A DNA stretch of 64,000 nucleotides from Escherichia coli (GTDB taxonomy: Bacteria; Pseudomonadota; Gammaproteobacteria; Enterobacterales; Enterobacteriaceae), in the NCBI RefSeq assembly GCF_003334815.1, contig NZ_QOWO01000005.1; one strand, given 5' to 3'. Of the stretch, positions 27,436-39,068 are shown piece after piece. Positions within the stretch are counted from its first letter, which is position 1; each line of letters starts with the position of its first letter. Made by a program: the position numbers and the translations under genes. Under the pieces are notes generated by a model, which worked only from the letters and a program-made list of their open reading frames with translations, was not told the origin of the DNA and searched no databases.

Positions 27436-27696
27436 TTACTGACGAGGATGCTTCAATAACTTCTTTACGTAATCGCGCAGCAGCTCCGTATCGTCGTCAG
27501 GAATGCTGGCATCGGGCTTTACCTCGTACAGCGCCCCCTCTACCTGATCAATCAACCGCTGTTGGTCATTTTGCGCCATATTGCGAAGCATTGCAGTGAC
27601 GATAATCTCCAAAGCTTCTACCTGCGCACACAGTTCTTTCGACTCTTCTTCTTTTTGGGCAAGCTTAAATAACAACTCAGCAATGAGATTTTTCAT
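27436..27696 (-). CDS. iraP: Anti-adaptor protein IraP (YaiB)
   Basis: 86-aa [36 protein letters not shown]. Confidence 0.9.
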
Positions 27697-28158
27697 GTCT
27701 GTATTTCCTTATCCAAAGTATGGAGAAGTTAACATTATGTTTCACAACTTCATAGTGTCTGGAAGTATTATTTTTATGACAAAGGAAATACTTTGCGCAA
27801 ATATTTTTTGTTTGATTACCAGCGAAACGTTTCTCTTATTTAAATAATTACCCACACAAAATATAGGCTTTTAATTATCAACCTTTATTATAAATAAAAG
27901 TTATGAAATATATTCTCTTCGTTAACTTATAATTAAGAGAAAAAAACTCACCGCATGGCCATTTAAGCCAGGAATAAATTAGCTTCCCGTTCATCATTTT
28001 TGTGATCTTGCGCACATCTTTGAGATAACGCACTTTCTTCACCAGTACGTTGCACGCTTTGTCAGCAGAAGATTGCAACAATCTTTCAGAAGGCCGCGAA
28101 TCCCCCGTTTTGTCGTGGTAATGTATGCACTTTGTGTTAGACGGGATAGGTTTTTAAG

Positions 28159-29253
28159 ATGGAAAAACTGCGGGTAGGAATCGTTTTTGGTGGTAAATCA
28201 GCGGAACATGAAGTGTCTCTGCAATCGGCAAAAAACATTGTCGATGCCATTGATAAAAGTCGCTTCGACGTTGTGCTGCTGGGCATTGATAAACAAGGGC
28301 AATGGCACGTCAGCGATGCCAGCAATTATCTGCTAAATGCAGACGATCCTGCCCATATTGCGTTGCGCCCTTCGGCGACCAGCCTTGCGCAGGTGCCAGG
28401 TAAACATGAGCATCAGCTTATCGACGCGCAAAACGGTCAGCCGTTGCCGACGGTGGATGTCATTTTCCCGATTGTCCACGGTACGCTGGGCGAAGATGGT
28501 TCCTTGCAGGGAATGCTGCGGGTCGCCAATTTACCGTTTGTAGGTTCTGATGTTCTGGCTTCAGCAGCCTGTATGGACAAAGATGTCACCAAACGTCTGC
28601 TACGCGATGCCGGGCTGAACATTGCGCCATTTATTACCCTGACGCGCGCCAATCGTCACAACATTAGTTTTGCCGAAGTGGAGTCTAAACTGGGGTTACC
28701 ACTGTTTGTAAAACCGGCTAATCAGGGCTCTTCTGTTGGTGTCAGCAAAGTAACCAGTGAAGAACAGTACGCAATTGCCGTCGATCTGGCGTTCGAGTTC
28801 GATCATAAAGTGATCGTTGAGCAAGGGATCAAAGGTCGTGAGATCGAATGCGCAGTTCTGGGCAACGACAATCCGCAAGCCAGCACCTGTGGAGAGATCG
28901 TACTCACCAGCGATTTCTATGCCTACGACACCAAGTACATTGACGAAGATGGCGCGAAAGTGGTAGTTCCGGCAGCCATTGCGCCAGAAATCAACGATAA
29001 GATCCGGGCGATTGCCGTTCAGGCTTATCAAACGTTGGGATGCGCAGGCATGGCGCGTGTAGACGTGTTTTTAACCCCAGAGAACGAAGTGGTGATCAAC
29101 GAGATCAACACCCTGCCTGGCTTCACTAATATCAGTATGTATCCGAAGCTGTGGCAAGCCAGCGGTCTGGGTTACACCGATCTGATCACACGTTTGATTG
29201 AACTGGCGCTGGAGCGTCACGCTGCGGATAACGCATTGAAAACCACAATGTAA
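28159..29253 (+). CDS. ddlA: D-alanine--D-alanine ligase A
   Basis: 364-aa [34 protein letters not shown]; ATP-grasp. Confidence 0.95.
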
Positions 29254-34642: not shown

Positions 34643-37570
<2,928 letters not shown>

Positions 37571-38093
37571 TTGTCATCCCTCCTCAGGGACGTAATAAGT
37601 TGATCCATCAATTATCAATGCATAGAAAACATATTATGTTTCGCGCTAACGATTATGCTGCGTTACAGACGAATGGTTCAATTATTCTTTCCCCTAAGTC
37701 CGAATGTGGACATATATAATTTATGGAGAAAAACACGCATCAAATTCATAAAAGCACAGTATTTCAACATGTTGCAGATAATTTTGTTTTTGAAGCATAC
37801 GCATAATAAATATCACAAACACAAACCAGATAAATATCCTATGAATATGCAACAAAGTTTTAATTATTCAATTTATAGCAGCGCAACCAAACTCCAAAAA
37901 ATAATAACCAACAGCTATAAATAAAGATTAAAAATATTTTCAGTGAATATAAAATTATTGCTGTTTCTATTAAAAAGATGTCCTGGCCTCTCTTCCATTC
38001 TCTTCTTGTCAACATCGCGACAACTTTCGTAAAACATCCCTACCCTGCTTCAGGTATACTATGCCCCTCGATTCCACAAACATCAGGCAGACC

Positions 38094-39068
38094 ATGACAG
38101 ACTTAATCCAACGCCCTCGTCGCCTGCGCAAATCTCCTGCGCTGCGCGCTATGTTTGAAGAGACAACACTTAGCCTTAACGACCTGGTGTTGCCGATCTT
38201 TGTTGAAGAAGAAATTGACGACTACAAAGCCGTTGAAGCCATGCCAGGCGTGATGCGCATTCCAGAGAAACATCTGGCACGCGAAATTGAACGCATCGCC
38301 AACGCCGGTATTCGTTCCGTGATGACTTTTGGCATCTCTCACCATACCGATGAAACCGGCAGCGATGCCTGGCGGGAAGATGGACTGGTGGCGCGTATGT
38401 CGCGCATCTGCAAGCAGACCGTGCCAGAAATGATCGTTATGTCAGACACCTGCTTCTGTGAATACACTTCTCACGGTCACTGCGGTGTGCTGTGCGAGCA
38501 TGGCGTCGACAACGACGCGACTCTGGAAAATTTAGGCAAGCAAGCCGTGGTTGCAGCTGCTGCAGGTGCAGACTTCATCGCCCCTTCCGCCGCGATGGAC
38601 GGCCAGGTACAGGCGATTCGTCAGGCGCTGGACGCTGCGGGATTTAAAGATACGGCGATTATGTCGTATTCGACCAAGTTCGCCTCCTCCTTTTATGGCC
38701 CGTTCCGTGAAGCTGCCGGAAGCGCATTAAAAGGCGACCGCAAAAGCTATCAGATGAACCCAATGAACCGTCGTGAGGCGATTCGTGAATCACTGCTGGA
38801 TGAAGCCCAGGGCGCAGACTGCCTGATGGTTAAACCTGCTGGAGCGTACCTCGACATCGTGCGTGAGCTGCGTGAACGTACTGAATTGCCGATTGGCGCG
38901 TATCAGGTGAGCGGTGAGTATGCGATGATTAAGTTCGCCGCGCTGGCGGGTGCTATAGATGAAGAGAAAGTCGTGCTCGAAAGCTTAGGTTCGATTAAGC
39001 GTGCGGGTGCGGATCTGATTTTCAGCTACTTTGCGCTGGATTTGGCTGAGAAGAAGATTCTGCGTTAA
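38094..39068 (+). CDS. hemB: Porphobilinogen synthase (delta-aminolevulinic acid dehydratase)
   Basis: Recognised start [31 protein letters not shown] within ORF 38061..39068. Confidence 0.95.

Follow-up and report, generated by a model that had tools for sequence, protein, structure and literature searches.

The yaiT-hemB locus of Escherichia coli raises the question of why strongly AT-rich DNA separates a surface autotransporter gene from an essential housekeeping gene, and which of the two genes this DNA serves. The window, which is the whole stretch of 64,000 nucleotides that was analysed, carries both genes in divergent orientation. The features that define the locus are as follows.

34664-37570, minus strand: yaiT, an intact autotransporter gene, 968 aa (the same gene as ehaB or upaC, and named seaB or yaiU in Salmonella)
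37571-38093, no strand: divergent intergenic spacer between yaiT and hemB, 523 bp, 34% GC
37720-38017, no strand: AT-rich spacer of ~300 bp, 28.5% GC, whose sequence is not conserved from genus to genus; proposed platform for H-NS binding
38094-39068, plus strand: hemB, encoding porphobilinogen synthase, 324 aa, beginning MTDLIQ

The RefSeq annotation bounded the autotransporter gene at 37570 (minus) and began hemB at 38094 (plus). An AT-rich region of ~520 bp between the yaiT start on the minus strand and the hemB start on the plus strand had been proposed, and this description was exact, with a measured length of 523 bp and a GC content of 34.0% compared with 51.7% for the window. The A/T tracts that had been noted in it were also present, as twelve runs of A or T of at least 4 bases. 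Among all 523-bp windows in the 64 kb, 0.9% were equally or more AT-rich. The composition was uneven along the spacer, with 28.6% GC at 37600-37980 and 18.8% at 37901-37980, and the hemB-proximal 113 bp (37981-38093) showed a normal composition of 48.7% GC. The yaiT and iprA genes also had low GC. The AT-richness of the spacer exceeds chance and is evolutionarily stable.

The spacer of the window was 100% identical to positions 389728-390250 of K-12 MG1655. In K-12 the yaiT gene is split by IS3B, but in the window it carries no IS3B insertion despite the identical spacer. Strain C288 also showed a 100% match to the window spacer, and its yaiT was 84 bp shorter. An 851-bp query around the spacer gave matches in 5,424 of the 5,426 complete E. 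coli genomes.

To see how the spacer is distributed, a scan with a HemB query was run on one genome per species and resulted in 80 loci. Of these loci, 39 had a yaiT orthologue divergent from hemB, and they represent at least 12 genera, which include Escherichia, Citrobacter, Enterobacter, Lelliottia, Kluyvera, Pseudocitrobacter, Trabulsiella, Yokenella, Pluralibacter, Leclercia, Phytobacter, and Kosakonia. The spacer in these 39 species measured 389-617 bp and had 32-38% GC, except one at 44%, next to hemB genes of 54-62% GC. In 17 species that lacked both yaiT and iprA, ampH was followed directly by hemB, and the gap between them was 100-170 bp with 42-61% GC. Those 17 species retained the hemB promoter block ...TTT(C/G)nnAAAC...GGTAnACT...CACAAAnATCAGGCAnACC. 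As hemB has short upstream DNA of normal GC wherever yaiT is absent in this set, the AT-rich DNA belongs to yaiT and not to hemB.

The two ends of the spacer carry the promoters. At the hemB end the transcription start is mapped, and the features are the following.

38018-38066, plus strand: hemB core promoter, with the conserved block CAACTTTCGTAAAACA, a non-canonical -35 region, and the -10 TATACT at 38055-38060
38067-38093, plus strand: hemB leader, 27 nt, from the mapped start at 38067

Kim et al. 2012, in their table of K-12 transcription starts, give a single hemB start. It lies on the minus strand at NC_000913.2 position 388978, is backed by 39 reads, and leaves a leader of 27 nt. The upstream sequence in that table, GCGACAACTTTCGTAAAACATCCCTACCCTGCTTCAGGTATACTATGCCCC, equals window positions 38017-38067 and places the hemB start at 38067. 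The TATACT hexamer ends 7 nt upstream of the mapped start, which is the position of a -10 element in a sigma-70 promoter. An in-frame ATG at 38061 would extend HemB to 335 aa, but it precedes the mapped start by 6 nt and therefore cannot serve as the start codon, so the 324-aa HemB was confirmed. The -35 region (38018-38040) was non-canonical, with AAACAT at the 17-nt position. The block TTTCGTAAAACA near this -35 region was kept even in genera without yaiT and could serve as a site for an activator or as an atypical promoter element.

At the opposite end of the spacer lies the predicted yaiT promoter, whose -10 came from a promoter scan, together with a predicted leader and a palindromic site.

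37698-37711, no strand: palindrome GTCCG-N4-CGGAC (in the window GTCCGAATGTGGAC, one mismatch), half-sites 37698-37702 and 37707-37711; candidate transcription-factor site
37676-37681, minus strand: predicted yaiT -35, TTGAAC, followed by an 18-nt spacer of variable sequence to the -10
37652-37657, minus strand: predicted yaiT -10, CATAAT, invariant in 40 of 40 sequences
37571-37645, minus strand: predicted yaiT 5' leader, ~75 nt, with a putative start near 37645
37575-37592, minus strand: Shine-Dalgarno (SD) region of the yaiT leader, GUCCCUGAGGAGGGAU, with a predicted 7-bp hairpin enclosing the SD

The arrangement TTGAAC-N18-CATAAT was present in all 40 sequences, from at least 12 genera, and was matched in just 2 of 2000 shuffles of the spacer. 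Fixed hexamers at a fixed 18-nt spacing, with variable sequence between them, are the signature of a real sigma-70 promoter. The core promoter and leader were the same in CFT073 (upaC), UTI89, an O157-like strain (ehaB), K-12, and the window.

Conservation continued into the leader, where the profile and the alignment showed the last 55 nt before the yaiT ATG to be nearly invariant across genera, and TCCCTGAGGAGGGAT was found in 39 of 40 sequences. The strong SD sequence GAGGAGGG lay inside the predicted 7-bp hairpin, which appeared in almost every per-species fold and in the fold of the window; the whole leader gave a folding z of −1.74. As this element never varies, covariation cannot test the hairpin. 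The SD hairpin may be a layer of translational control. A further hairpin, predicted where the yaiT leader begins, occupied the same place in most genera with differing sequences, but it was energetically weak, with a median z of −0.8 (near 0 for the E. coli type).

The original prediction read the spacer as a silenced, H-NS-type promoter region of the autotransporter. A tract much more AT-rich than the genome, as expected for a target of xenogeneic silencing, was seen in the window and in 39 other species. Such a target should also be silent in standard laboratory conditions. Transcription start site mapping had been suggested as a check, and the published K-12 map of Kim et al. 2012 lists the hemB start and no yaiT start; on both strands it contains no start in the spacer other than that of hemB. 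This list is not saturating, so the missing yaiT start is weak evidence of silence.

The case for H-NS is built on the orthologues. Papers that cite Allsopp et al. 2012 (Infect Immun 80:321; PMC3255655) place UpaC of UPEC among the H-NS-repressed autotransporters and give the repression as transcriptional. The gene upaC (c0478) of UPEC strain CFT073 occupies the same locus, divergent from hemB and followed by iprA, and citing papers also report its de-repression on loss of hns. A comparative study equates the names ('EhaB, also called UpaC'), and RefSeq labels the hemB-adjoining gene ehaB in many strains. CFT073 carried 6 substitutions relative to the window between the palindrome and the ATG, all of which spared the -35, the -10, and the final 72 nt of the leader. 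Across the centre of the spacer, in contrast, its identity with the window allele was ~62-68%, near that of shuffled sequence, and its passenger domain is a different allele. The H-NS repression is reported for the upaC allele, and its extension to the K-12-type allele of the window is by analogy.

In Salmonella, seaB (formerly yaiU) adjoins hemB and lies upstream of iprA. The yaiU gene of Salmonella Typhimurium is a positional orthologue of yaiT, likened to it by position and not by promoter alignment. H-NS binding to the yaiU promoter was reported by gel shift, calorimetry (Kd 0.29-0.46 µM), and ChIP-qPCR, and the Salmonella paper terms yaiU a previously reported H-NS-repressed gene. There c-di-GMP is reported to block H-NS binding to the yaiU promoter DNA and to relieve the repression, an effect known solely from Salmonella. 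The seaB gene belongs to a different genus, and its passenger domain is ~50% identical. For K-12, a genomic SELEX table carries an H-NS mark at the yaiU>yaiV spacer, which is the opposite end of the gene. The supplements of Shimada 2014 have no entry for the yaiT-hemB spacer, the orthologue table of Higashi 2016 is without hemB, yaiT, and iprA, and the hemB-yaiT pair is not in the published excludon list.

By analogy with these orthologues, the best explanation, and one that we consider probable, is that H-NS silences the yaiT promoter and that the hemB promoter is independent of it. The silenced, H-NS-type promoter region of the autotransporter thus gained support, as the AT-rich DNA accompanies yaiT, a yaiT start is absent from the Kim 2012 list, and the orthologues are H-NS targets. 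The idea that this promoter shares space with that of hemB was right insofar as both lie in one spacer. It did not hold at a finer scale, because ~420 bp separate the two starts (hemB mapped, yaiT predicted) and the AT-rich core does not extend to the hemB promoter.

In the mechanism that we propose, the two promoters are independent and point in opposite directions, and the AT-rich DNA that separates them would act as a silencing platform. A compact promoter, located where the spacer has normal GC, drives hemB, which needs at most ~80 bp of upstream DNA. yaiT would be driven by its own promoter at the opposite end (-35 at 37681-37676, -10 at 37657-37652, start near 37645). H-NS would bind positions 37720-38017 and also the AT-rich 5' portion of yaiT, which encodes the passenger domain, and this occupancy of the window allele is what we infer from the orthologue literature. 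H-NS filaments or bridges would then keep the yaiT promoter off in laboratory conditions. hemB would escape H-NS because its promoter lies past the AT-rich boundary. Control by a site-specific factor that binds the palindrome may play an additional part.

The H-NS interpretation is already known for the upaC and yaiU (seaB) promoters, so the finding is ordinary and reveals no new kind of system. At the E. coli upaH, upaG, and F9 fimbriae loci, surface-protein genes likewise have AT-rich regulatory regions, stay off in laboratory culture, and are released from repression when hns is mutated. These loci show no sequence relationship to this one, and yaiT differs from them in sharing its spacer with an expressed essential housekeeping gene. 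The locus is a textbook-style pairing of a silenced variable adhesin with an essential, constantly expressed housekeeping gene. What is gained is a map, in which 80 bp belong to hemB, the yaiT (ehaB, upaC, seaB) elements are fixed across genera, and ~300 bp are conserved solely in composition and length. With such a map, experiments that ask how H-NS silencing stays within bounds and leaves an adjacent essential promoter active become easy to design.

The AT-richness might instead be functionless. An unconstrained spacer could have drifted under the AT-biased mutation pressure of enteric bacteria, and yaiT could be quiet because of a weak promoter or the lack of an activator and not because of H-NS. 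The variation of the spacer gives this view some ground, as its central 190-300 bp are not conserved in sequence even within E. coli. Identity between E. coli alleles was at least 94% at 37571-37719 and ~89-99% at 37913-38093. At 37720-37912 it fell to 62-73% between allele classes, compared with 62 ± 1.7% for a shuffled control under the same alignment scheme; within the K-12/O157 class the same segment was ~89-90% identical. The promoters flanking the variable centre were 89-100% identical, and most of the strains examined had an identical HemB protein (the accession for CFT073 is a different one). The centre of the spacer keeps its length and composition and not its sequence. This pattern fits a composition-dependent role; it is also what one would expect if diverged alleles were imported whole, along with the hypervariable passenger domain.

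The sequence hallmarks of H-NS targets were also not in clear excess. The H-NS motif TCGATAAATT at up to 2 mismatches occurred three times in the 523 bp and 87 times in the 64 kb, and AT content alone might give as many. Promoter-like sites numbered 5 in the promoter scan against 2.8 ± 1.5 expected, an excess that was not significant. AA/TT periodicity at 10-11 bp reached p ~0.07 at best, so phased A-tracts or curvature were not significant either. Nevertheless, functionless drift is unlikely in our view. Length and composition were maintained in at least 12 genera though deletions are easy, E. coli intergenic DNA is typically far richer in GC than 28%, a value within the lowest 1% for the window, and the orthologous promoters are bound and repressed by H-NS.

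The palindrome raises another explanation, in which a dedicated site-specific regulator acting near -60, possibly IprA, is the main control of yaiT and H-NS is background only. The palindrome was located exactly 16 nt upstream of the yaiT -35 in 40 of 40 sequences (at most 2 mismatches, at least 12 genera), with its centre ~59.5 bp upstream of the predicted yaiT start. In the 64-kb window the site was the sole match at up to 1 mismatch. Its layout, a 5-N4-5 palindrome held at one helical position ahead of the -35, would suit the operator of a Crp/Fnr-like dimeric regulator. IprA is a candidate because yaiT (seaB) always lies upstream of iprA, and its domain content includes a winged-helix HTH_46 (1e-30) and a weak cNMP_binding-like match (0.016).

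The palindrome was missing upstream of hemB in all examined loci from which the entire yaiT region is gone, and it persisted in two loci with only yaiT remnants or at a contig end, as well as in locus L068. In S. enterica subsp. diarizonae (L025), yaiT was reduced to fragments and the palindrome was still there. In Kluyvera intermedia (L026), S. enterica subsp. arizonae (L028), and Pluralibacter sp. (L036), iprA was kept beside hemB and yaiT was lost. Against IprA, the palindrome was missing upstream of iprA in two of these loci, L026 and L036, so nothing ties the palindrome to IprA in particular. The published repression of the orthologues by H-NS also speaks against such a regulator as the main control, and we regard it as rather improbable in that role. 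A regulator may act at the palindrome, and such action is compatible with H-NS silencing.

We know of no factor that binds the yaiT palindrome. From the sequence one could picture a broader scheme, in which the palindrome is the operator of a dedicated regulator that counters H-NS silencing (IprA being the best candidate, as it is co-inherited and Crp/Fnr-like) and, with the SD hairpin, forms a conserved two-level adhesin switch across Enterobacteriaceae; this scheme is speculative and we hold it to be doubtful. The palindrome and the fixed layout of the yaiT promoter are the sole items of the analysis that are possibly new.

A further reading assigns the AT-rich DNA to hemB as its upstream regulatory region, with an UP element, curved DNA, or activator sites. 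The 91-94% conservation of 37913-38017 within E. coli agrees with it, and the non-canonical hemB -35 makes an upstream contribution conceivable. Between genera, however, the hemB promoter and leader were conserved from 38018 onward and conservation stopped at ~38018, and species without yaiT use 100-170 bp of normal-GC DNA for hemB. A natural deletion in E. coli strain 4848 bears on the same point.

L008 2252-3054: IS1 deletion in strain 4848, junction equal to window 38041-38045

This IS1-linked deletion took out nearly the whole of yaiT and ran through the spacer as far as window 38041-38045, ~50 bp before hemB, so that an IS1 end stands in place of all DNA upstream of this point. The IS1 end provides TTGGCA 18 nt upstream of the hemB TATACT and, judging from this spacing, probably forms a hybrid promoter with the hemB -10. 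The deletion shows that the AT-rich DNA is dispensable for hemB. Together with the short upstream DNA in yaiT-less species it shows that hemB does not need the AT-rich DNA, and a hemB regulatory role for it is very unlikely.

A gene for a small protein or small RNA, missed by annotation within the spacer, is least likely of all. The spacer does contain mechanical ORFs, such as one of 89 aa at 37655-37924 on the plus strand, but this ORF was rejected because other E. coli alleles truncate it to 4 or 31 aa. An Rfam scan of 37000-38600 at E ≤ 1 gave no match, the RefSeq K-12 annotation has no feature inside the spacer, and the Kim 2012 table adds no extra start.

The spacer was one of three AT-rich troughs in the 64 kb. 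With two further troughs in this length, AT-rich regions are a recurring feature and not a rarity. One of the others, at ~27644-28166 between iraP and ddlA, was strongly AT-rich intergenic DNA. The other, at ~42605-43127 upstream of tauA, had 28% GC, and the tauABCD transcription unit is marked as H-NS bound in a published table.
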